Origin: an uncultured Bacteroidota bacterium
GTDB lineage: Bacteria; Bacteroidota; Ignavibacteria; Kryptoniales; JAKASW01
Assembly: GCA_963704305.1 (NCBI GenBank)
Contig: OY969888.1
Coordinates: 1,820,435 to 1,884,434 of the forward strand
Direction: 5' to 3'
DNA length: 64,000 nt
The position numbers were made by a program, and so were the translations under genes. Positions 3,149-61,569 of this stretch are shown here, in pieces. Every line of letters begins with the position of its first letter. The stretch's first letter is position 1. The notes beneath the pieces are model-generated. The model had not been told where the DNA came from. It was given only the letters and a program-made list of their open reading frames with translations, and did no database searches.

Positions 3149-5632
3149 ATGCGGAAGCTTTTATATGTGATTTTATGCATAAGCTTTACGGCATCCGTTT
3201 CTTATGGACAGGTGAGGATCCAGGATCGGGCCCTTGCCATGAGCATGCGGCCTGCTGTGCCCAATAACATTTTTCCGAATACAGCTTCGATGATAGCAGG
3301 AAATCTTTGGGATTCCTTCATGCCCATTTCCACGGGTGTCTATTACAGCGAGATTGCGAACAATCCTACACACTTGTGGGACTTGGTTCGAGTTGGCAAT
3401 TTTGACAGACAATGGTCAACTCCCACGGTTATGTGGCCGGGCGGTTATCCGTACAGCTACTATTGGAATCAGGACCTGATTTCGGTCGAATACTCTCCTG
3501 GCATCAATCCGACCAAACAGGTGAGTGCCTCGGCAGACTATGCCGCAATGATTTGGACATCTCATGTAGATTCCTTGTGGCAGGCAACGCTCGGATTGCA
3601 TTCTTACGTTATCGGACCCATCTGGGTTAACCCCGATGGTACCCCGGATCAAAATGGTACCAAGAGATACGAACTCTACTATGAAGCCGGCTTTCCAACT
3701 AATCTCGGCATCTGGGTTACCTTCCGTGCGATACAATACACTCAGCCTTGGGATCAGTTCAACGACTTCATAATCTTCGGTGTTACTTTCAAGAACTACG
3801 GCCTTCTCGATGTCGCGGCAGATGGTCATCCAACCTCTACCAACAACAAGATAAACGCTCTGACGTTTGGGTGGTTTTCTGGTGACATGCAGGCCGCTCA
3901 AATCAGCACCGCCGGCTACAGGGGAGCGAACTCCTTTGGCGATGCGAGAATGTCCGGCTTCATTGCGGACAACGATCCAAGTGGTGTTCCGTGGGCTACA
4001 CAAGTCGGTTATGCCGGAGTCAATCCTGTCAATTATCCAAGCTATCCTAACGGGACAGTGCCCGCGGGAAAACATGACATGGGATTGAACGCTTACACCT
4101 ACGGCTTCTACAGCGATGTCTGGTTCGGCAAGACATGGCTCGGAGTAAAAGCGGACTCACTCGGACTTCCCGGCGCTCCTGATGCACAAACAATCTTCGG
4201 CACCGATCCGGTTGGCAAAGGAGCTCAGCATGGATGGTTCATGTCTTCCGGAACAGGCCTCGGTAATCTCGACAACAGGCTTGACGCGTCTGTGATGCAC
4301 ACCGATTTCATGGGTGAGTTTTACCAGGATGGCGGTAAGAGCAACGACGCCAGCAAGCTCAACCTGAATCCTAATCCGAACTTCTTCCAACCCGGCGGGA
4401 CCGCGGGCAATCCTCTGACATTCGTGCCGAAGGCAAGCCCCAGCCAGCCTGACGGTGACAAGAAGAGCACAAACTCTCTCCAGAATATCTGGGAGCCGGG
4501 CTGGACAAAAGGATACTCGATCTCTACCAACTTTGATGGTGACTCTTTCATCGGCACTGGTCCATACGCACTCGATGTTGGACAGTCCATCACAGTGGTA
4601 GGTGCAGAGTATGCTGGGTTCAGAATGCAGGGGATGCTTAATTCGTTGCAGTCCGCACGTTATGCCTGGCAGAATGGTGGTGTTCCGGCGGGCCCTGCTG
4701 CGCCAGACATCCAGACCCTAATCACACCGGGCGATAACAAAGTCCAGGTAGAGTGGACGAAAGTTCCAAATGAGACTTCAGATCCGAACTTCGGTGGCTA
4801 CAAGATCTACCGCGCCAGTGCCTTTCCGACATTTAACTCTACCGTCTTGGGACTTAGAACCATGCAGCATTATACCGATCAAATGCACGCCGGTGACATT
4901 GACGCGTCTTACTTCGATCCTATCAATCCGAACTTTGATGCGACAGGCTCGCTAAAGACAATGCAGGCCGGTTACTGGGGCCCCTGGCGCATTCAGGCGG
5001 TCATTCCCAAGGATTCACTCCAGAAATATGCGCACACTGATGGGAACTATTCATACGCGTTCAAAGACAACGCGCTGGATGTTATCCTGGGCTTCTCATA
5101 CTGGTACTACGTTGCCGCATATGATAACGTGCCCTCAATGACATTCAACGGAGAAACGACGACTCACCTTGAATCCGGCAGAGTCAACGAGAATGGCGCG
5201 TCCGGCATGTGGGTCGGGACATTCCCTTGGGCCACTCAGAACAGCTTCTACCCGAAGGATGTTTCAAATCTGAAAGCCATCGGTGCAACAGTGGTTGTCC
5301 AATCCGCACCCGTCAATCCACAATCGCTCGCGAGCGGCACAGTAAAAATCGGCGTGCGCCCGAACCCATACAAGAAGCAAGCGTTTCAGGACGTCGGCCT
5401 GGAGCACAAGATCATGTTCTACAATCTTCCGAGCACTTGCACGATAACAATTCTGGATGTCTCCGGTCAGATTGTTGACCAGATCAATTACGCTGCTCCG
5501 ACCCCGACCAACGGGACATTCTTCTGGGATATGTTCTCGAAAGACGGCATCGAGGTCGCCAATGGACTGTACATTTATGTGGTGCAGTATAGCGGCGGCC
5601 AGCAGACCGGTTACTTTGCGATCCTAAGGTAA
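3149..5632 (+). CDS. Secreted protein of unknown core function with FN3-like segment and T9SS/FlgD-Ig-like C-terminal sorting domain
   Basis: ORF 3122-5632. Preferred start is ATG 3149, which has AGGAGA upstream and gives the signal peptide MRKLLYVILCISFTASVSYGQ. FN3-like stretch PDIQTLITPGDNKVQVEWTKV..GGYKIYRA. The C-terminal ~80 aa (VRPNPYKK..CTITILDVSGQIV..NGLYIYVVQYSGGQQTGYFAILR) resemble T9SS C-terminal tails. Confidence 0.6.
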   Translation: MRKLLYVILCISFTASVSYGQVRIQDRALAMSMRPAVPNNIFPNTASMIAGNLWDSFMPISTGVYYSEIANNPTHLWDLVRVGNFDRQWSTPTVMWPGGYPYSYYWNQDLISVEYSPGINPTKQVSASADYAAMIWTSHVDSLWQATLGLHSYVIGPIWVNPDGTPDQNGTKRYELYYEAGFPTNLGIWVTFRAIQYTQPWDQFNDFIIFGVTFKNYGLLDVAADGHPTSTNNKINALTFGWFSGDMQAAQISTAGYRGANSFGDARMSGFIADNDPSGVPWATQVGYAGVNPVNYPSYPNGTVPAGKHDMGLNAYTYGFYSDVWFGKTWLGVKADSLGLPGAPDAQTIFGTDPVGKGAQHGWFMSSGTGLGNLDNRLDASVMHTDFMGEFYQDGGKSNDASKLNLNPNPNFFQPGGTAGNPLTFVPKASPSQPDGDKKSTNSLQNIWEPGWTKGYSISTNFDGDSFIGTGPYALDVGQSITVVGAEYAGFRMQGMLNSLQSARYAWQNGGVPAGPAAPDIQTLITPGDNKVQVEWTKVPNETSDPNFGGYKIYRASAFPTFNSTVLGLRTMQHYTDQMHAGDIDASYFDPINPNFDATGSLKTMQAGYWGPWRIQAVIPKDSLQKYAHTDGNYSYAFKDNALDVILGFSYWYYVAAYDNVPSMTFNGETTTHLESGRVNENGASGMWVGTFPWATQNSFYPKDVSNLKAIGATVVVQSAPVNPQSLASGTVKIGVRPNPYKKQAFQDVGLEHKIMFYNLPSTCTITILDVSGQIVDQINYAAPTPTNGTFFWDMFSKDGIEVANGLYIYVVQYSGGQQTGYFAILR

Positions 5633-52967: not shown

Positions 52968-54413
52968 ATGGGAACAATCATAATTGTAGGCCTCATCGCA
53001 TTCATTATCGGAGTTTCAATGGGCTATTTAATTATCAAAGCCCGAACAAATCGAAAGATTGGAACAATCCAAGCACAATATGCCACCGAGTTAAGTTTAC
53101 ATGCACAAACCAAGCAAATGCTTACTGAGATTCAAAGTGAGCAAAAAGAAAGAATAAAGTATGAGACTCAGTTTATTGAAAAAGATAATCAGTATAAATC
53201 TTTGAAAGGTGAATTCGACAATCTTCAAATTGAGGCTGCCAATCTAAGAACTTCCAATGCACACATCAGCGCAAAATACGGCGAGGCTTTAAGAGCGATC
53301 GAGGAACAAAAGACATTTGTTACCACTGCGAACACTGCGCTGAAGGAAGCATTCAGTTCCCTTTCTGCCGATGCGCTGAAAAATAATAATCAATCATTCC
53401 TAGATTTAGCGAAAACCGCTTTGGAAACTCACATCAACGAATCGAAATCAGATTTAGAGAAAAGGCAACAGGCAATAGATTCAATTGTAAGACCCCTGAA
53501 GGAAAGTTTGAGCACGTTCGATGGAAAGATTCAAGAAATAGAAAAAGCGAGAGAGGGAGCATATTCAGAAATCAAGGTACTACTTAGCAATATGCAAGGT
53601 GCAACAGACAAACTCGAGAAAGGAACCAATACGCTTGTTACCGCTCTTAAGACCTCTCATGTCAGAGGAAAATACGGAGAAATCGGACTCAGACGTGTTG
53701 TAGAATTTGCGGGCATGTCGGAGTTCTGTGATTTCGATGAACAAGTATCGATCTCTACCGAAGAAGGAAGACTGAGACCAGACTTAATCGTGAACCTTCC
53801 GGGACAGAGGAAAATTATTGTTGATGCTAAAGTCCCATTAACCTCCTACATACAGGCTTTTGAAACTAATGACGAAAACGAAAAGAAAGCTCTCCTTGTA
53901 AAGCATTCAGAATCTGTCAGAGACCATTTGAAACAATTAAGCGCAAAATCATATTGGAGTCAGTTTGAAGATGCTCCAGATTTCGTGGTAATGTATCTTC
54001 AAATAGAATCTTCTTTTGGTTCTGCTCTCGAAATGGACAAAACACTTATAGAAGATGCAATAAATAATAGAGTAATACTTGCAACACCCACTACTTTAAT
54101 AACTATGTTGCGTACGATTGCCTTTAGCTGGCAACAGGTTCGAATCGCCGAGAATATCTATCAAATCAGAGATGCAGGAGTTGAATTGTATAATAGAGTT
54201 ACGATTCTCATTCAACATATCGCGGCTGTGGGAAGTGATTTGGATTCCGCCGCACAGAATTATAATAAAGTAGTCGGTTCATTGGAAAGCAGGTTCATTC
54301 CACAAGTAAAAAAGTTAAAAGATATTGGTGGGACGCTTATGGATAAGGATATTCCAGAGTTAACCCAGGTCGATACGTCCCTCCGTCCATTGAATGATAC
54401 GTCCGTGACTTAA
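52968..54413 (+). CDS. rmuC: DNA recombination protein RmuC (N-terminal TM + coiled-coil + PD-(D/E)xK-like RmuC domain)
   Basis: N-terminal TM helix IIIVGLIAFIIGVSMGYLII and a long coiled-coil. The RmuC signature is RGKYGEIGLRRVVEFAGMSEFCDFDEQ..RPDLIVNLPGQRKIIVDAKVPL..FVVMYL. Confidence 0.85.
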   Translation: MGTIIIVGLIAFIIGVSMGYLIIKARTNRKIGTIQAQYATELSLHAQTKQMLTEIQSEQKERIKYETQFIEKDNQYKSLKGEFDNLQIEAANLRTSNAHISAKYGEALRAIEEQKTFVTTANTALKEAFSSLSADALKNNNQSFLDLAKTALETHINESKSDLEKRQQAIDSIVRPLKESLSTFDGKIQEIEKAREGAYSEIKVLLSNMQGATDKLEKGTNTLVTALKTSHVRGKYGEIGLRRVVEFAGMSEFCDFDEQVSISTEEGRLRPDLIVNLPGQRKIIVDAKVPLTSYIQAFETNDENEKKALLVKHSESVRDHLKQLSAKSYWSQFEDAPDFVVMYLQIESSFGSALEMDKTLIEDAINNRVILATPTTLITMLRTIAFSWQQVRIAENIYQIRDAGVELYNRVTILIQHIAAVGSDLDSAAQNYNKVVGSLESRFIPQVKKLKDIGGTLMDKDIPELTQVDTSLRPLNDTSVT

Positions 54414-54557: not shown

Positions 54558-56210
54558 ATGAAGATGAACAGAATAAGAATTGAAAATTTCCGCTCGATCA
54601 AGAAAACAGAATTTAAGACATCCGATTTCAATATTTATGTTGGTCAAAACAATTGTGGTAAGACAAATTATTTTGAAGCGCTTGAGTTTTTTTTCAACGG
54701 GATAGGAAAGAGTGTAAATGTAGATGATTTAAAGTATAAGCGAGACCCTGCTCTTGAGATCATTGTTGAAGTGGAATTTACTGGCGCGATCAACGGTGCT
54801 GCTTCAATGCAAAATTCTTCAAATAAAACAAAAATTGAAAATGCTCTTAACGGTTCTGATTTAGTCGTGTTTCAACGAAGTAGCTTGAATCCAAAGAAAA
54901 GGACAATGTTTATAAATGGAAATGAAGTTCAACCTGGGACTGGATTTGATGCTGCATTAAATGATTTCCTACCTAAGTTTGAATATGTAAGCACCAAACA
55001 ATATTATGATTCTGTAGCAAAGTACACTAAGACAACTCCCATTGGTATAATGCTTTCAGGTGTACTATCAACAATATTGCAAACAAACCAACAATATCAA
55101 GAATTTCAGGAAACATTCAGAGAACTCTTCGAAGATGATAATTCTCAAATTAAAGCCGAGTTTGACTCTATTGGAAATAAAGTGAAACTATATCTCGAAA
55201 AGCAGTTTCCGGACACCACAAAGGTCAAATTTGAAGTTACCGCACCAGCATTTGATGATCTATTAAAAAACTTTGATACAACGGTAGACGACGGTGTCGA
55301 AACTCTAGCGGAAGAAAAAGGTGATGGAATGCAGAGAGCATTAATGCTTGCAATTATTCAAGCTTATGCTGATTTCAGAAAATCCAACGAGGATTTAGGT
55401 AAATCATTTTTATTCTTTATAGACGAAGCGGAATTACATCTTCACCCTACAGCCCAACGAAAACTCAAAAATGTGCTTCACAATCTTTCTCAAGGTAGTG
55501 ATCAAGTATTTATCAATACACATTCTTCTGTTTTTGTTGCGGATAATTATTCAGGGCAAACGATATTTAAAGTGGAAAAAACGAGTGGTGAAACAGAGAT
55601 AGAAGCGTCGAACGAATCTGAAAAACCATACATAGTTTTTGAATTGCTCGGAGGAAGTCCATCTGATTTATTGTTGCCAAAAAACTTTTTAATAATTGAA
55701 GGTCAAAGTGAATATGAATTTCTATCACGAGTAATTAGTAGGTTTTATTCAGATAAACCAAACATACAACTTATAAAAGCAAATGGGGATATTGATCAAG
55801 CCGAAAGAACCATCAATGCAATTGAAAAAGTATTTTCACCCTTAAATGCGAGCATTTATAAAAACCGGCTCACAATATTGATTGATATGCCCAGTGTAGA
55901 GATGGAAGGCGGCGTAAATCAATTTTTACAAAATTACAATAGTTTAATGACTAATAGACAGTTCTTTCAACTTCCTGTTAGAGATATAGAGCAATACTAT
56001 CCTGACCAGCAAGATACTGTATATGAAAATTGGAAGAAAACACAGGCACAAATTGATGAAGTAAATACAGAGGGGAAAAAAGTATTTACCAATAAAAAGA
56101 AAAAACAACTTGCAAAGCACATTGGTAAGAGTATTACAGTACAGCAATTTGAAAATAGTATGCAAATATGTATTGATGCTTTATCAAGATGTTGGGAGTT
56201 GTCTTTTTAG
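54558..56210 (+). CDS. OLD-family-like ATP-dependent nuclease (ABC-type ATPase + Toprim-like C-terminal region)
   Basis: IRIENFRSIK..VGQNNCGKTNYFEAL is the Walker A motif. GDGMQRAL is signature-like. FLFFIDEAELHLHP is Walker B with the OLD/AAA_15-typical ELHLHP. FINTHSS is the H-loop. The C-terminal FLIIEGQSEYEFL resembles the Toprim glutamate motif. I could not see the DxD motif clearly (TILIDMPS). The gene is very AT-rich. Confidence 0.6.
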   Translation: MKMNRIRIENFRSIKKTEFKTSDFNIYVGQNNCGKTNYFEALEFFFNGIGKSVNVDDLKYKRDPALEIIVEVEFTGAINGAASMQNSSNKTKIENALNGSDLVVFQRSSLNPKKRTMFINGNEVQPGTGFDAALNDFLPKFEYVSTKQYYDSVAKYTKTTPIGIMLSGVLSTILQTNQQYQEFQETFRELFEDDNSQIKAEFDSIGNKVKLYLEKQFPDTTKVKFEVTAPAFDDLLKNFDTTVDDGVETLAEEKGDGMQRALMLAIIQAYADFRKSNEDLGKSFLFFIDEAELHLHPTAQRKLKNVLHNLSQGSDQVFINTHSSVFVADNYSGQTIFKVEKTSGETEIEASNESEKPYIVFELLGGSPSDLLLPKNFLIIEGQSEYEFLSRVISRFYSDKPNIQLIKANGDIDQAERTINAIEKVFSPLNASIYKNRLTILIDMPSVEMEGGVNQFLQNYNSLMTNRQFFQLPVRDIEQYYPDQQDTVYENWKKTQAQIDEVNTEGKKVFTNKKKKQLAKHIGKSITVQQFENSMQICIDALSRCWELSF

Positions 56211-56394: not shown

Positions 56395-56625
56395 TCAGTA
56401 CTCGATAGGCAATCGTCGCAAAACTGAAGCCTTGAAGTTATCGTCACAAGTCAGAACGAAATCCCCTTGTATTCCCGCCGTGGTGACAAATTGTTTCAAC
56501 AGAGATGCGGGGAACTGCACAGTGATCCCATCAGGACAGCGTGCGACCACTTGCTGGAGAGTACCGCGATAGTAGGCCAGATATTCTTCGGACGAAATGT
56601 TGAGATAAAACTCAAACCTTTTCAT
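56395..56625 (-). CDS. DUF2835-family small protein
   Basis: 76 aa: MKRFEFYLNISSEEYLAYYRGTLQQVVARCPDGITVQFPASLLKQFVTTAGIQGDFVLTCDDN matches the DUF2835 pattern as I recall it (F.L.IS..E.L.YY.G....V......G..vQ.PA...RPF.T..GI.G.F.L). Confidence 0.6.
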   Translation of the reverse strand: MKRFEFYLNISSEEYLAYYRGTLQQVVARCPDGITVQFPASLLKQFVTTAGIQGDFVLTCDDNFKASVLRRLPIEY

Positions 56626-57141: not shown

Positions 57142-57270
57142 GGGGTTGTAGCTCAGTCCCGCCTAGTGGCGGGATTTCGTCTCGAACGGTGTTCGGGACT
57201 CAATTTGGTTAGAGCGCCTGCCTGTCACGCAGGAGGTCGTCCCGATTAAGATCGGGAAGCCTCGTCAACA
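57142..57270 (+). pseudogene. Degenerate tRNA-Asp(GTC) copy with a 47-nt double-hairpin insert in the D-loop and a hairpin replacing the 5' T-arm
   Basis: GGGGTTGTAGCTCAG[47 nt]TTTGGTTAGAGCGCCTGCCTGTCACGCAGGAGGTCG[TCCCGATTAAGATCGGGA]AGCCTCGTCAACACC. Outside the brackets the sequence is identical to the intact tRNA at 57808, except that the 5' T-stem is lost and the acceptor has a C>A change. Confidence 0.75.
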
Positions 57271-57317
57271 CCGGGCCGACGGGATCATGCGTGAAGACAA
57301 GACATCAGAGACAGGAT

Positions 57318-57593
57318 ATGTGGTTTACGTACATACTTTACTCGGAGAAGATAGACAGGTATTATGTAGGTTACACTGACGATATTGCGTGGCGGGAGGA
57401 GCGGCACAATTTAGGATGGGGGAAATACACAAGGCGAGGGATACCCTGGAAGTTAGTGTACCATGAAAGGTATAATACAAGGGTGGAAGCCATGCGACGG
57501 GAAAAGGAAATAAAGAGGAAGAAAAGCCGGAAGTACATCGAAAGTTTGATAAATTCGGAACGTATTTCTGATCTGAATCGGGAGGCGCAGTAA
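57318..57593 (+). CDS. GIY-YIG nuclease-superfamily small protein (COG2827/YhbQ-like)
   Basis: MWFTYILYSEKIDRYYVGYTDDIAWREERHN..GKYTRRGIPWKLVYHERYNTRVEAMRREKEIKRKKSRKYIESLI contains the GIY (YIL), YIG (YVG), R..H and E motifs. The ORF track starts at GTG 57291; ATG 57318 fits the family N-terminus. Confidence 0.8.
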   Translation: MWFTYILYSEKIDRYYVGYTDDIAWREERHNLGWGKYTRRGIPWKLVYHERYNTRVEAMRREKEIKRKKSRKYIESLINSERISDLNREAQ

Positions 57594-57676
57594 GATTATT
57601 CAACGATGTCCGCGCTTTCATCTGATTTGTTAGCTTGATAGTTCGTACACAGGAAATTAAATTAGCATACGCAAAT

Positions 57677-57752
57677 GGGGTTGTAGCTCAGTCCCGCCTA
57701 ATGGCGGGATTTCGTCCCGACCGGTGTTCGGGACTCAATTTGGTTAGAGCGC
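57677..57752 (+). pseudogene. 5' fragment of tRNA-Asp carrying the same 47-nt D-loop insert
   Basis: GGGGTTGTAGCTCAG[TCCCGCCTAATGGCGGGATTTCGTCCCGACCGGTGTTCGGGACTCAA]TTTGGTTAGAGCGC, after which similarity stops before the anticodon arm. Confidence 0.75.
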
Positions 57753-57807
57753 AACCCAGCAGACTTTGTTCATATTTATGTTGATAGACTGACTATTGAT
57801 TTCCACT

Positions 57808-57882
57808 GGGGTTGTAGCTCAGTTTGGTTAGAGCGCCTGCCTGTCACGCAGGAGGTCGCGAGTTCGAGCCTCGTCAACCCCG
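57808..57882 (+). tRNA. tRNA-Asp (anticodon GTC)
   Basis: The sequence folds by hand into a cloverleaf: acceptor GGGGTTG/CAACCCC, D-arm GCTC..GAGC, anticodon arm CCTGC-CTGTCAC-GCAGG, variable loop AGGTC, T-arm GCGAG-TTCGAGC-CTCGT, discriminator G. Confidence 0.9.
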
Positions 57883-57887
57883 CACCA

Positions 57888-57924
57888 AGATCCCGTAGAT
57901 CAACAAGATTTGCGGGATTTTTTA
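57888..57924 (+). terminator. Rho-independent terminator after tRNA-Asp
   Basis: AGATCCCG-N17-CGGGATTT stem followed by a T-run (GGGATTTTTTAT). Confidence 0.65.
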
Positions 57925-58012: not shown

Positions 58013-58093
58013 CTCAGGATCAAAAAAAATCTTTGAAACTAATTTAGAATCAGCGAATCCAGTTTAAGTCAAGCGTCAGGGCACGCCTGTCAC
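58013..58093 (+). repeat. Repeat B1 (about 80 nt; gene-tail + leader + tRNA-Asp-like remnant)
   Basis: About 80% identical to 61048-61126: CTCAGGATCAAAAA..TCTTTGAAACTAATTT..TCAGCGAAT..TTTAAGT..GGCAC.CCTGTCAC. The TCTTTGAAA..ATTTTGAG leader also precedes the pseudo-tRNA at 57142. Confidence 0.75.
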
Positions 58094-58839: not shown

Positions 58840-59005
58840 ATTAAGTTCCCAACAATGACATGGCCTGAAGTGCTGCACAACATTATCAGAAAGGAGGGAA
58901 TCGACAGAAGGAGAAAGCGTAAAATAGCCGTTTCTAGTTAACACATTTCTTCACACGAGGCACCGGCAGTACGTCGCGTGCTTCATCAAACAGAAGGTGG
59001 TAACC

Positions 59006-59692
59006 ATGCGATCTAAACTTATTTTCATGCTTATGATAGTTTTCTTTATCGGATGTTCGGATGTGCAACAACCGACGTCGCCAGTAGTACTGCAAGTACC
59101 TGGTAAACCGGGAAGTGTAAAGAAAACAGCTGGTACTGGCACTGATCACGGCTATTTCTATTCATTATATGTCAGTGGTGGATCAGCAAGCATATCCTTT
59201 CCCCAAGCGGGAAAATACGCTGGCAATTTCCAAGTTAACTGGTCTAATGTAAATGATGTGGTTGGCGGTAAAGGCTGGAGTACCGGATCAGCTAGAACTG
59301 TAAACTACAATTGCGGTTCCCTTACCGGTAGCTTTAATAATTTCTCTGTCTATGGGTGGACGACAGGCCCGCTAATTGAGTACTACGTCTGTGAGATGGG
59401 CTCTGTGGCGAGTGGAACGTATGTTGGCTCCGTTAGCAGTGATGGGCATTCATACAGCGTGTATAAGCATCAGCAAGTAAACCAACCTTCCATCCAAGGC
59501 ACTGCAACTTTTTGGCAGTATCTAAGTAACTGGGGCGGGTCATCGAAAGGATCAAACCACTCCGTCACCACTGGGAACCATTTTAACTATTGGAAGAGTC
59601 ACATTGGGAGTATGGGTAGTTTCAATTACCAGATATTAGCGATAGAGGCATATGGTGGTAAAAGTGGGTCGTGTAACGCAACTGTGTGGTAA
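59006..59692 (+). CDS. Glycoside hydrolase family 11 endo-1,4-beta-xylanase (lipoprotein signal)
   Basis: MRSKLIFMLMIVFFIGCSD has a lipobox. GYFYSLYVSGG..NFQVNWSN..VVGGKGW..VYGWTTGPLIEYYVCE..SDGHSYSVYKHQQVNQPSIQGTATFWQY..NHFNYWKSH..YQILAIEAYGGKSGSCNATVW is the GH11 jelly-roll with both catalytic Glu positions (LIEYY, AIEAY). Confidence 0.85.
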   Translation: MRSKLIFMLMIVFFIGCSDVQQPTSPVVLQVPGKPGSVKKTAGTGTDHGYFYSLYVSGGSASISFPQAGKYAGNFQVNWSNVNDVVGGKGWSTGSARTVNYNCGSLTGSFNNFSVYGWTTGPLIEYYVCEMGSVASGTYVGSVSSDGHSYSVYKHQQVNQPSIQGTATFWQYLSNWGGSSKGSNHSVTTGNHFNYWKSHIGSMGSFNYQILAIEAYGGKSGSCNATVW

Positions 59693-59906: not shown

Positions 59907-60800
59907 ATGAGAAGACTACTGATTTTCCTTTTGACGGCAATCATGGTTGTTGTCAGCGCTTGTTCGCAAAAAGTGCCTGATGACTTTGTCTTAGTCCAAG
60001 GCGGGACTTTTAAAAACACAAATGCTAACTACTACGGAAAAAGTGTAACAATATCGAGCTTTTATATCGGCAAAAATGAGGTAAGTCAAAAAGAGTGGAT
60101 CGAGGTAATGGGAAGTAATCCCTCGGAGTTCGTGGGCGACAATTTTCCGGTAGAAATGGTAAGCTGGTATGACTGTGTTGAGTACTGTAATAAAAGGAGC
60201 ATGAAGGAGGGCTTAAGACCGTATTACAATATAGACAAGAATAAGGAAGACCCGAATAACGAGAGAGACCCTAATTTTGAGGGTGATCTCGATACTGTAA
60301 AATGGACGGTAACGATCAATGCGGGGGCTAATGGTTACCGATTGCCGACAGAAGCAGAGTGGGAATTTGCTGCAGGTGGAGGTCAGGTGAGCAAGAGTTA
60401 CACTTACAGTGGAAGCAATGATGTGGATCAGGTAGCGTGGTATTGGAGAAACTCCGGAGACAAATACTTAATAGGAGATTGGCTCTGGCCTGTGCTAGAA
60501 AATAACCATAATAAGACAAAATCTGTCGGCGGCAAGAAACCCAACGAGTTAGGACTTTACGATATGTCAGGTAATGTAAGGGAATGGTGCTGGGACTGGT
60601 ACGGAGACTTGAAGATTAATGTAGCTGACCCCAAAGGAAGTTCTAGCGGCTATGGCCGGGTTTGGAAAGGCGGCGGTTGGATCGGCGCCGACTTCTGCTG
60701 CGCGTCGTCTTTCCGGGGCAGCCTCGCAGCGAATGGCACGGGCCCCGATCAGGGTTTTCGTTTGTGTTGCAGTCCGAATGGATCCCTTCGGGACAAGTAA
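59907..60800 (+). CDS. FGE-sulfatase / SUMF1-family domain lipoprotein
   Basis: Lipoprotein signal LLTAIMVVVSACSQ. FYIGKNEVSQKEWIEVMGSNPSEF..PVEMVSWYDCVEYCNK..GYRLPTEAEWEFAAGGG..LGLYDMSGNVREWCWDWY..RVWKGGGW..QGFRL is the formylglycine-generating-enzyme fold pattern. Confidence 0.8.
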   Translation: MRRLLIFLLTAIMVVVSACSQKVPDDFVLVQGGTFKNTNANYYGKSVTISSFYIGKNEVSQKEWIEVMGSNPSEFVGDNFPVEMVSWYDCVEYCNKRSMKEGLRPYYNIDKNKEDPNNERDPNFEGDLDTVKWTVTINAGANGYRLPTEAEWEFAAGGGQVSKSYTYSGSNDVDQVAWYWRNSGDKYLIGDWLWPVLENNHNKTKSVGGKKPNELGLYDMSGNVREWCWDWYGDLKINVADPKGSSSGYGRVWKGGGWIGADFCCASSFRGSLAANGTGPDQGFRLCCSPNGSLRDK

Positions 60801-60954
60801 ACGGGAACGAGAAGCAGCAGGAGTTCCGCCAAGTTACGCGCTAGAAGCAACCTATTCGAATACATTTCCCGAACAAGACGGAAGTTTACCGCGCAAAGCG
60901 GGGAGAGGCCGACTCCCGACAAGATTACATTTCGTCGGGATGATGTTTGATCGG

Positions 60955-61050
60955 CTCAACCCAACGACAACGATCGCGTTCAGTATTCCAGCGAGTTCCT
61001 TCGCATCATCGAAGATATATAGCTCTCTCGGTCAAGAAATTACCGAGCTC
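60955..61050 (+). pseudogene. Orphan fragment of a T9SS C-terminal sorting domain
   Basis: The frame reads RLNPTTTIAFSIPASSFASSKIYSSLGQEITEL, typical of T9SS/Por tails (NP.T.I.F.LP....V.L.IYD.LGQEV..L). There is no upstream protein body. It runs straight into repeat B2. Confidence 0.45.
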
Positions 61051-61126
61051 AGGATCAAAAAGTCTTTGAAACTAATTTTGAGTCAGCGAATTCATTTTAA
61101 GTTAAGCATCGTGGCACACCTGTCAC
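61048..61126 (+). repeat. Repeat B2 (paralogue of 58013-58093)
   Basis: See B1. The alignable length is about 80 nt and ends in GGCACACCTGTCACGC, which shares CCTGTCACGC with the tRNA-Asp anticodon arm. Confidence 0.75.
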
Positions 61127-61186
61127 GCCTGCGTGTCGAAACACTCAGATGTCAAAGTTACAGTTGGAGTCACTTCGGCGTTCAGG

Positions 61187-61219
61187 CACGCAGGAGACCG
61201 TCCCGACATTGTCGGGAAG
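61187..61219 (+). repeat. tRNA-Asp 3'-half-like fragment with TCCCGAC hairpin
   Basis: CACGCAGGAGACCGTCCCGACATTGTCGGGAAG; compare CACGCAGGAGGTCGTCCCGATTAAGATCGGGAAG in the pseudo-tRNA at 57226-57259. Confidence 0.6.
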
Positions 61220-61569
61220 TCCCGATCATTAATATTGAAATAGCAATTGCGGCACTGCCAGTAACTCCTTTTCGAAATATCCTTGCCCGCCGGATTCATG
61301 CCGTGTCTCATGAAAACGAAAAATGAGCGGTCAACTCGCGAACAAAGTGACAAAGTCTCGGTCAACCTCAGGTGCAACGGAATAGTCTTCGCCATTGGAC
61401 TTACGATGAACGCGACTGTTTCGTTCATATGATCCTCCCTATATTAAAGAGTCATTTAACGGCAGCAACCGTAGTCGCGACAATGTGAACAGGGAGCATA
61501 AGCATGAATATTCATACGCTGTCGAAGTTCAATGATTTCTCAATTCGGCAATATAGAGAAAGGATTACG

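Follow-up and report, generated by a model that had tools for sequence, protein, structure and literature searches.

What is the gene for a small nuclease doing among broken copies of a tRNA gene? This question is raised by a 64-kilobase (kb) stretch of contig OY969888.1 from an uncultured Bacteroidota bacterium (here called the window), in which an open reading frame (ORF) for a single-domain GIY-YIG nuclease lies between two interrupted copies of tRNA-Asp, upstream of an intact tRNA-Asp gene. The Ssn family comprises single-domain GIY-YIG nucleases that bind hairpin repeats (SRM/NTS) as single-stranded DNA (ssDNA) (Chenal et al., Nat Commun 2025; PMC11893778). With a probability of roughly 55%, we propose by analogy that an Ssn-like system is nested here within an array of tRNA-Asp genes; its cognate repeats, equivalent to SRM/NTS, would be the hairpins with the stem base TCCCG/CGGGA. 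Because the same arrangement recurred in many bacteria, our analysis suggests that a family of Ssn-like, hairpin-binding ssDNA nucleases lives in and around tRNA genes.

The only tRNA gene detected by ARAGORN in the window was tRNA-Asp(GTC) on the forward strand (57808-57883), which scored 70.1 bits with the Rfam tRNA model; it had been recognized in the original prediction, and its end was corrected to 57883. The two upstream copies described there, with their shared two-hairpin insert of 47 nucleotides (nt) in the D-loop, were present on the same strand. Copy 1 proved to extend to 57273 (57142-57273) and is a full-length pseudo-tRNA-Asp consisting of tRNA positions 1-15, the D-loop insert (57157-57203, between positions 15 and 16), tRNA 16-51, the hairpin TCCCGATTAAGATCGGGA (TCCCGAT-TAAG-ATCGGGA, 57240-57257) and tRNA 60-76, the last part with 2 mismatches to the intact tRNA. 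As had also been noted, this third hairpin stands in the T-arm; it replaces the 8 nt CGAGTTCG (tRNA 52-59), which form the 5' strand of the T-stem and half of the T-loop. Copy 1 remained below the Rfam tRNA threshold (17.7 bits versus 29, reached via an alternative 5' alignment only) and was not called by ARAGORN. Copy 2 (57677-57752), a 5' fragment made of tRNA 1-15, the 47-nt insert (57692-57738) and tRNA 16-29, gave neither an Rfam tRNA match nor an ARAGORN call; over 76 nt, its identity to copy 1 is 96%, and 55 nt separate it from the intact tRNA downstream.

The insert of copy 1 is built of hairpin a (TCCCGCC-TAGT-GGCGGGA, 57157-57174), TTTC, hairpin b (GTCTCGAAC-GGT-GTTCGGGAC, 57179-57199) and TCAA. 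The claim that differences between the two copies leave the first stem perfect and the second largely paired held up: one difference lies in the loop of hairpin a, and the two in hairpin b correspond to a T.G pair in copy 1 and to one C/T mismatch in copy 2. Folded as ssDNA, the insert hairpins were stable on either strand (z about -4.4 to -4.8), and the hairpin sequences were absent from the rest of the 64 kb, where 0-0.1 chance matches would be expected.

The ORF (57318-57593, forward strand) indeed lies between copies 1 and 2, and its product has 91 amino acids (aa) plus a stop codon instead of the 92 aa first counted. GIY-YIG (PF01541, residues 10-82, E=5e-12) was its sole Pfam domain, and no second or DNA-binding domain was found with Pfam. 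The protein is UPF0213/COG2827-like: its best solved-structure match was PDB 1ZG2 (E=4e-7), and its PDB relatives are UPF0213 proteins of about 100 aa (96-107 aa). These relatives, BH0048 (PDB 1ZG2) and EF2693 (PDB 1YWL), share its size and single-domain build; unlike the window gene, they are solitary genes of unknown function with no reported tRNA or hairpin context. We take E. coli YhbQ to be a UPF0213/COG2827 protein as well.

The protein database contained 422 homologues of the window protein, and the family amounted to 668 clusters at 50% identity and E<=1e-10. Full-length identity was 26-34% to the small GIY-YIG proteins of Spirosoma, Sphingomonas and the metagenome locus L068, whose genes have GTCAT-type palindromes in their flanks. 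The subfamily has the C-terminal signature ..REKEIKRKKSRKYIExLI. In 59 of the 120 closest homologues, the C-terminal end is ..AGGRP(E/D), which is the translation of CACGCAGGAGGTCGTCCCGA, i.e., of tRNA-Asp sequence plus a hairpin arm. More generally, many database proteins in the series P0004-P0116 and P0121-P0270 have artefactual ends, such as ..AGGRP(E/D) tails, N-terminal extensions of 20-60 aa, or two-domain fusions of tandem copies (P0121, 214 aa).

We then asked how regularly the gene, the tRNA and the hairpins occur together. One genome per species was scanned by protein similarity alone, with no DNA criterion, which yielded 23 related loci from Melioribacteraceae, other Ignavibacteriales, Calditrichaceae, Bacteroidota and a few other phyla. 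In 18 of them, an intact tRNA gene precedes the ORF by 0-370 nt on the same strand, which bears out the adjacency of GIY-YIG and tRNA genes in the FCB group that the original prediction had mentioned. A TCCCG..CGGGA hairpin at or after the end of the ORF, inside a partial copy of the neighboring tRNA, was found in 20 of the 23 loci, and none of this hairpin class occurred in the remaining roughly 3 kb of flanking sequence. The closest relatives had tRNA-Asp as the neighbor; elsewhere it was the tRNA for Ala(GGC), Val, Met or Ser. Thus, the idea of a small unit aimed at tRNA-Asp stood as far as a recurrent hairpin/GIY-YIG unit at tRNA genes is concerned, and fell as to the specificity for Asp.

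The hairpins occupied fixed sites within each lineage. Every hairpin of the Asp lineage replaces the same 8 nt (tRNA 52-59), in a total of 18 hairpins from 12 sources, namely, the window and 11 loci (L001-L006, L011, L013, L018, L154 and L155). The Val (L008) and Met (L009) lineages and one Ala lineage (L014) have a hairpin in place of all 17 nt of the anticodon arm, the Ala-GGC and Ser lineages have one in place of 6-8 nt of the anticodon stem-loop, and 6-8 nt of the D-arm are lost to a hairpin in L010, L017 and L021; L010 combines D-arm and T-arm hairpins, like copy 1 of the window. The sequence flanking the hairpin tracks the local tRNA variant (e.g., in L004). In many loci, the ORF runs into the tRNA fragment and the stop codon falls within the hairpin loop, and the pseudo-copies are truncated at very different points, usually with loss of the 5' strand of the acceptor. 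Five loci (L002, L003, L006, L154 and L155) showed turnover in the form of tandem units, ORF pseudogenes and ORF-less hairpin fragments, the repeating unit being terminator, ORF and pseudo-tRNA with hairpin. The sequences thus document the association of gene, tRNA and hairpin, fixed replacement sites, arrays, pseudogenes and the retention of an intact tRNA. The flanks of the window locus and of L152, L001, L002 and L003 were not syntenic, and no empty (unfilled) site was found there.

Two models for the broken copies were discarded. An archaeal-type or group I tRNA intron is incompatible with the data, since removal of the hairpin would not restore the 8 lost nt, most copies are truncated, and no intron structure is present. 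A split-tRNA cassette, i.e., an element that carries its own tRNA and sits inside an older tRNA gene whose 5' half lies upstream and 3' half downstream, fails as a general model: L001 and L006 lack the 5' half and L068 lacks the 3' half. As a separate observation, a group of JGI metagenome contigs (L024-L028; about 2440-2830 of L024) carries, among Fic and HerA-like genes, a GIY-YIG unit that has pseudo-tRNA-Asp remnants on both sides; the nearest 2.5 kb contain no intact tRNA. In the 3' fragment of this unit, another and longer insert separates the T-stem from the acceptor strand, at a second site that was also used in L011 and L153.

A curated set of 37 hairpins from these tRNA-copy contexts was used to characterize the hairpin itself. 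Pairs 1-5 (T-A, C-G, C-G, C-G and G-C) were essentially invariant, pair 6 was A-T in 31 hairpins and C-G in 6, pair 7 was always paired and occurred as four pair types, and the loops mostly measured 3-4 nt. Among the 273 stem pairs, 266 were Watson-Crick pairs, 3 were G.T, 3 were A.C and 1 was of another kind. The hairpins thus combine a constant stem base with covarying inner pairs. Since the stem base is constant beside variable tRNA flanks, across phyla and in three tRNA arms, it argues for a site recognized by a protein and against independent decay. Palindromic repair scars of the P-nucleotide type were rejected: the left flanks are variable tRNA sequence, and the stem base is constant.

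The hairpin-bearing copies could instead be functional RNA elements, with copy 2 acting as a tRNA-like leader ahead of the tRNA gene and copy 1 or the canonical 3' fragment as a tRNA-like 5' or 3' untranslated region of the GIY-YIG mRNA. Their role would lie in the control of processing, of stability or of translation, with the hairpins as expansion helices added to a tRNA scaffold. The elements of the locus all lie on one strand, 14 nt separate copy 2 from a promoter-like site (TTGATA-17-TAAATT) upstream of it, and a match to the same consensus lies 84 nt upstream of copy 1. According to a scan and to our reading of the sequence, the only terminator is the one that follows the intact tRNA, a hairpin (TCCCGTAGATC..GATTTGCGGGA and then a T run; 57891-57924, forward strand) that was read from the sequence and was not listed by a simple terminator scan. 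Because promoter-like sites precede the copies and the sole terminator follows the intact tRNA, the whole array is probably cotranscribed. An RNA function would also fit the conserved insert positions with varying sequences and paired stems, the stop codons in hairpin loops of relatives and the RNA fold of copy 1 (z=-3.5). However, the points of truncation differ widely among the copies, which have usually lost the 5' acceptor strand, and a search of Rfam in E-value mode with the window locus and 11 related loci returned nothing but tRNA. Moreover, the near-perfect palindromes show no excess of G.U over A.C (3 versus 3), as expected of DNA hairpins that can form on either strand; used as a strand test, these numbers are uninformative, and the lack of an excess means that there is no sign of RNA-only structure. 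The constancy of the stem base across phyla points to a protein-recognized site, and SsnA does not bind RNA (PMC11893778). We therefore consider a functional RNA quite improbable, and the cotranscribed tRNA-like RNA mentioned as an alternative in the original prediction gained no positive support from the Rfam result, the pair counts or the varied truncation.

Among known systems, Ssn comes closest to the window locus. SsnA of N. meningitidis is a single-domain GIY-YIG protein of 94 aa (CDD cd10448) that binds the NTS repeat CGTCATTCCCGCGMAVGCGGGAATCYRG only as ssDNA, cuts upstream of it, and is inactive on double-stranded DNA and RNA (PMC11893778). SRM hairpins were found in the flanks of 71% of ssn homologues, and the authors likened the arrangement NTS-ssnA-NTS to an insertion sequence (PMC11893778). 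The window locus resembles this system in several respects. Its 91-aa protein compares with Ssn proteins of about 90-100 aa with a single GIY-YIG domain, and its ORF is flanked on both sides by short inverted-repeat hairpins (57157-57199 and 57240-57257 on the 5' side, 57566-57583 and 57692-57734 on the 3' side) in the same hairpin-gene-hairpin layout, reminiscent of an insertion sequence. The two systems have the same hairpin core, TCCCG..CGGGA here and ATTCCCGCG..CGCGGGAAT in NTS/dRS3, and both comprise many protein and hairpin variants. Unlike Ssn repeats, the window hairpins lie within partial copies of the neighboring tRNA gene and take the place of tRNA arms, and within the available sequence they are confined to the tRNA array and not dispersed; the protein subfamily is also distant from the tested enzymes. 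We thus call the window protein Ssn-like in the sense that it may work as Ssn/SRM does, and not as a proven member of that family. The word tRNA is absent from the Ssn paper (PMC11893778), and a search of the literature on GIY-YIG proteins with tRNA, pseudo-tRNA, COG2827 and UPF0213 yielded no description of the present arrangement.

The GIY-YIG fold is also a typical fold of homing endonucleases, an analogy drawn in the original prediction. A classical free-standing homing endonuclease would cut the duplex tRNA gene of naive genomes and be copied by double-strand-break repair, so that the hairpin-bearing partial tRNA would be both an immune copy of the target and the distal homology arm. A known case is SegB of phage T4, a GIY-YIG enzyme whose gene sits among the tRNA genes on which it acts and which cuts within this region, promoting duplication or amplification of neighboring segments (PMC2330249, PMC13096335). 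In keeping with such a scheme, the ORF always has tRNA sequence on both sides, the hairpin has a fixed site per lineage, tandem amplification is present, and the flanks of the pseudo-copy match the local tRNA, as in L004. Several features speak against it. Seg enzymes have about 200 aa or more, contain a DNA-binding domain, cut duplex DNA, and belong to phages, not to bacterial chromosomes, without hairpin repeats or hairpin-substituted pseudo-tRNAs, whereas the 91-aa window protein has no classical DNA-binding domain; its homologue P0037 reached 19.2 of the 56 bits required by TIGR01453, the model for group I intron endonucleases. The adjacent intact tRNA would stay a target of the enzyme. 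Disruption for the sake of immunity would also leave unexplained why TCCCG/CGGGA recurs as the stem base at genes for Asp, Ala, Val, Met and Ser and in three different arms, and why the same hairpin class is present without a nearby ORF. A homing endonuclease is thus improbable, and we replaced I-TevI/Seg with the Ssn family (PMC11893778) as the best analogue.

Further members of the array were found beyond those in the original prediction. A fourth hairpin (TTCTGAT-CTGA-ATCGGGA, 57566-57583, forward strand), decayed and weakly folding, lies inside the 3' end of the ORF with 3 mismatches to the T-arm hairpin; its position agrees with the ..AGGRPE tails of homologues, and it is probably what remains of the pseudo-tRNA 3' fragment that relatives canonically have after the ORF. 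A further decayed 3' fragment of pseudo-tRNA-Asp, CACGCAGGAGACCG, hairpin TCCCGACATTGTCGGGA (61201-61217) and AGTCCCGATCA, lies at 61186-61235 on the forward strand, with no GIY-YIG remnant beside it. Finally, the stem of the tRNA-Asp terminator has the base TCCCG/CGGGA, as in the hairpins of the element, and this terminator may be a recruited hairpin of the same family. A loose hairpin pattern matched 7 times in the 64 kb versus 1.15 times in shuffled sequence, 5 of these matches being at the tRNA-Asp array and 2 at 60.9-61.2 kb. We also noticed a hairpin with the same stem base, TCCCGACAAGATTACATTTCGTCGGGA, at 60914-60940, which has no recognizable tRNA flank.

The history of the locus could be traced by comparison with its closest relative, L152, an independent metagenome contig whose protein is 76% identical. 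L152 contains, in this order, a pseudo-tRNA-Asp with a decayed T-arm hairpin, a 47-nt spacer, the ORF, a 14-nt spacer, an intact tRNA-Asp and a similar terminator (about 3368-3400), the stem of which is likewise TCCCG..CGGGA; the arrangement of L020 is similar. Since an independent contig has the same order, an assembly artefact, considered in the original prediction as a way in which the interrupted copies could have arisen, is unlikely. From this comparison, the old core of the window locus is the pseudo-tRNA with T-arm hairpin, the ORF and tRNA-Asp, shared with L152. Neither the D-loop insert nor copy 2 is present in L152, so the D-loop insert is a later event in the window lineage; a 76-nt piece, consisting of the insert and 29 nt of tRNA flanks, was then duplicated into the spacer between ORF and tRNA to give copy 2. 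Thus, it is the T-arm hairpin, and not the D-loop insert, that is conserved with the ORF lineage.

To see how widespread D-loop inserts are, metagenomes were scanned for GTAGCTCAG followed by TCCCG. Most matches were chance matches in GC-rich coding sequence, and about ten were real D-loop-insert loci, consisting of 5' pseudo-copies of tRNA genes for Asp (L029), Asn (L052, L068 and L114), Pro (L072 and L112), Arg (L038 and L123) and His (L102). In nine of the ten, the pseudo-copy precedes an intact tRNA of its own kind by about 25-150 nt, as copy 2 does in the window; in L063, the remaining locus, there are two copies in tandem, and the fetched portion of the contig contains no intact tRNA. 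Both ends of the insert could be mapped in six of the ten loci, where the inserts begin after tRNA position 15 or 16, the tRNA resumes at position 16-18, and the inserts are 24 to 211 nt long. L029 has a two-hairpin insert of the same length, 47 nt, at the same tRNA-Asp D-loop site, with a different sequence; the window insert belongs to this class. The motif TCCCG..CGGGA-TTTCG..CTCAA is common to the window, L068 and L114. The termini of the long inserts, of about 140-210 nt (L063, 10184-10503; L038, 2041-2240; L102, reverse strand, 2417-2660), form inverted sequences resembling TCCCG(A)...(T)CGGGA. This suggests a family graded in length, with the short hairpins as its smallest representatives. 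In a viral collection, the D-loop insert had 0 matches, and the Asp/T-arm junction had 3, all of them chance matches in coding sequence.

Two of these loci deserve separate mention. On a GC-rich metagenome contig (L072, reverse strand, about 1640-2330), a 5' pseudo-copy with a large structured insert stands before each of two successive tRNA genes, Pro-TGG and Arg-TCT, and in some genomes many tRNA genes may carry pseudo-copy leaders of this kind. In L052 (reverse strand, about 315-710), the tRNA-Asn gene, whose 5' pseudo-copy carries a D-loop insert, is followed by an ORF that, as far as can be read from its sequence, resembles an IS200/RAYT-type transposase. Such a RAYT-like enzyme is a possible alternative candidate for the enzyme that serves the D-loop hairpin class. 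REP/BIME repeats and their RAYT (IS200/IS605-type) transposases are comparable to the proposed window system in that a small nuclease gene is flanked by cognate ssDNA hairpins that multiply nonautonomously; they differ in that the enzyme is an HUH tyrosine transposase and not a GIY-YIG protein, and REPs are dispersed intergenically and not aimed at tRNA copies.

These loci bear on a further explanation, in which integrase-mediated insertion of islands and tandem duplication at a tRNA hotspot left the tRNA copies behind, generic REP- or MITE-like palindromes unrelated to the GIY-YIG protein invaded these copies later, and the GIY-YIG gene merely hitchhikes. The D-loop inserts of 24-211 nt, with TCCCG..CGGGA-like ends at many tRNA genes and no GIY-YIG gene nearby, speak for such an invasion; one of the loci has the IS200/RAYT-like ORF, and accessory and defense genes flank the window array (OLD, RmuC, GH11 xylanase and an FGE-sulfatase between 81-nt repeats). 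It is contradicted by the loci chosen by protein similarity, 20 of 23 of which have the hairpin directly at the end of the ORF, by the homologues, half of which are translated into the hairpin, and by the absence of such hairpins from the remaining roughly 3 kb of flanks. Moreover, att repeats are exact copies of tRNA 3' ends without replacement of an arm, whereas all partial copies here carry hairpin replacements or inserts and thus do not look like an integrase-type att duplication; an integrase gene was not systematically searched for in the window. We regard this explanation as very improbable.

Several results weigh against an Ssn-like system. The SRM pattern HGTCWYN(0-2)YYVSBRHN(0-5)WNVSBRGN(0-2)RNCYNB, which finds the NTS consensus as a control, had 0 matches on both strands of the window and 32 related loci; the GTCAT box of NTS (GTCWY in the pattern) is absent or shifted, and only the palindromic core is shared. 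A tblastn search against 72,556 plasmids returned nothing at E<=1e-3, so the protein is distant from the characterized proteobacterial enzymes. No GIY-YIG gene was found in the fetched flanks of eight of the ten D-loop-insert loci, and those of the other two, both at tRNA-Asn, belong to a different subfamily; the D-loop hairpin class is for this reason tied less closely to the window protein than the T-arm class, and for it the nuclease might act in trans or not at all. Finally, the only signs of mobility are the arrays and the distribution across lineages, from which movement may be deduced. Recurrence across lineages is well documented, and the mechanism would follow by analogy.

If the analogy with Neisseria SsnA holds, the predicted nuclease would bind the hairpin in single-stranded DNA and nick beside it. 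The single-stranded state could come about through replication or through the transcription bubble of a strongly expressed tRNA unit, or the target could be incoming ssDNA. Nicks, combined with hairpin-induced replication slippage between tRNA repeats, would lead to duplication, gene conversion and tandem arrays, and the conserved tRNA sequence would serve as portable homology by which a unit of ORF plus hairpin could settle at the same tRNA in new genomes. By comparison of the loci, a tRNA copy struck by a hairpin would be dead, and only arrays with one clean tRNA would survive. We lean, by a little better than even, toward cognate hairpins having colonized duplicated tRNA segments while selection keeps one clean tRNA; the earlier view of the interrupted copies as dead by-products beside one clean gene fits the data. 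An exchange of hairpin for hairpin on single-stranded cloverleaf DNA is attractive and unsupported.

The surroundings of the array contain genes of defense type directly upstream, namely, an RmuC-family gene (52968-54413), which also matches the PADLOC DRT-associated model, and an OLD-family ATPase-nuclease gene (54558-56210; PADLOC Old, 3e-60), followed by a DUF2835 ORF on the minus strand (56395-56625). Downstream lies an 81-nt direct repeat (58013-58093 and 61048-61126; 85% identity) whose end resembles the anticodon region of tRNA-Asp (CCTGTCAC). The repeats bracket a 3-kb segment with a gene for a GH11 xylanase (58997-59692) and one for an FGE-sulfatase-domain protein (59907-60800); the segment ends near the pseudo-tRNA fragment at 61186-61235. 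This segment may be cargo captured within the tRNA and hairpin array.

A broader proposal, which we find unlikely and put forward tentatively, is that this small GIY-YIG branch is the engine of a tRNA-gene-specific hairpin element. A hairpin would be swapped for the D, anticodon or T arm of the single-stranded gene, which would kill the copy and force or promote duplication of the tRNA. Such an element would be a general driver of tRNA arrays, pseudogenes and islands in Ignavibacteriota, Bacteroidota and other phyla, and could represent the ancestral selfish lifestyle of an Ssn/SRM system that was domesticated by Neisseria.

Small single-domain GIY-YIG proteins are very common and are annotated only as "GIY-YIG nuclease family protein." The work on Ssn established a biochemical activity for one branch and left open the biological role outside Neisseria. 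At present, loci such as the one described here are misannotated both by gene callers and by tRNA finders. The genomic context of tRNA and hairpin would explain why GIY-YIG genes have long been noticed beside tRNA genes in the FCB group. It would likewise account for a class of tRNA pseudogenes and tRNA-like leaders, and for the odd ..AGGRPE C-terminal tails and N-terminal extensions, which are translated tRNA sequence. Moreover, it would give these nucleases a concrete, testable substrate and role.

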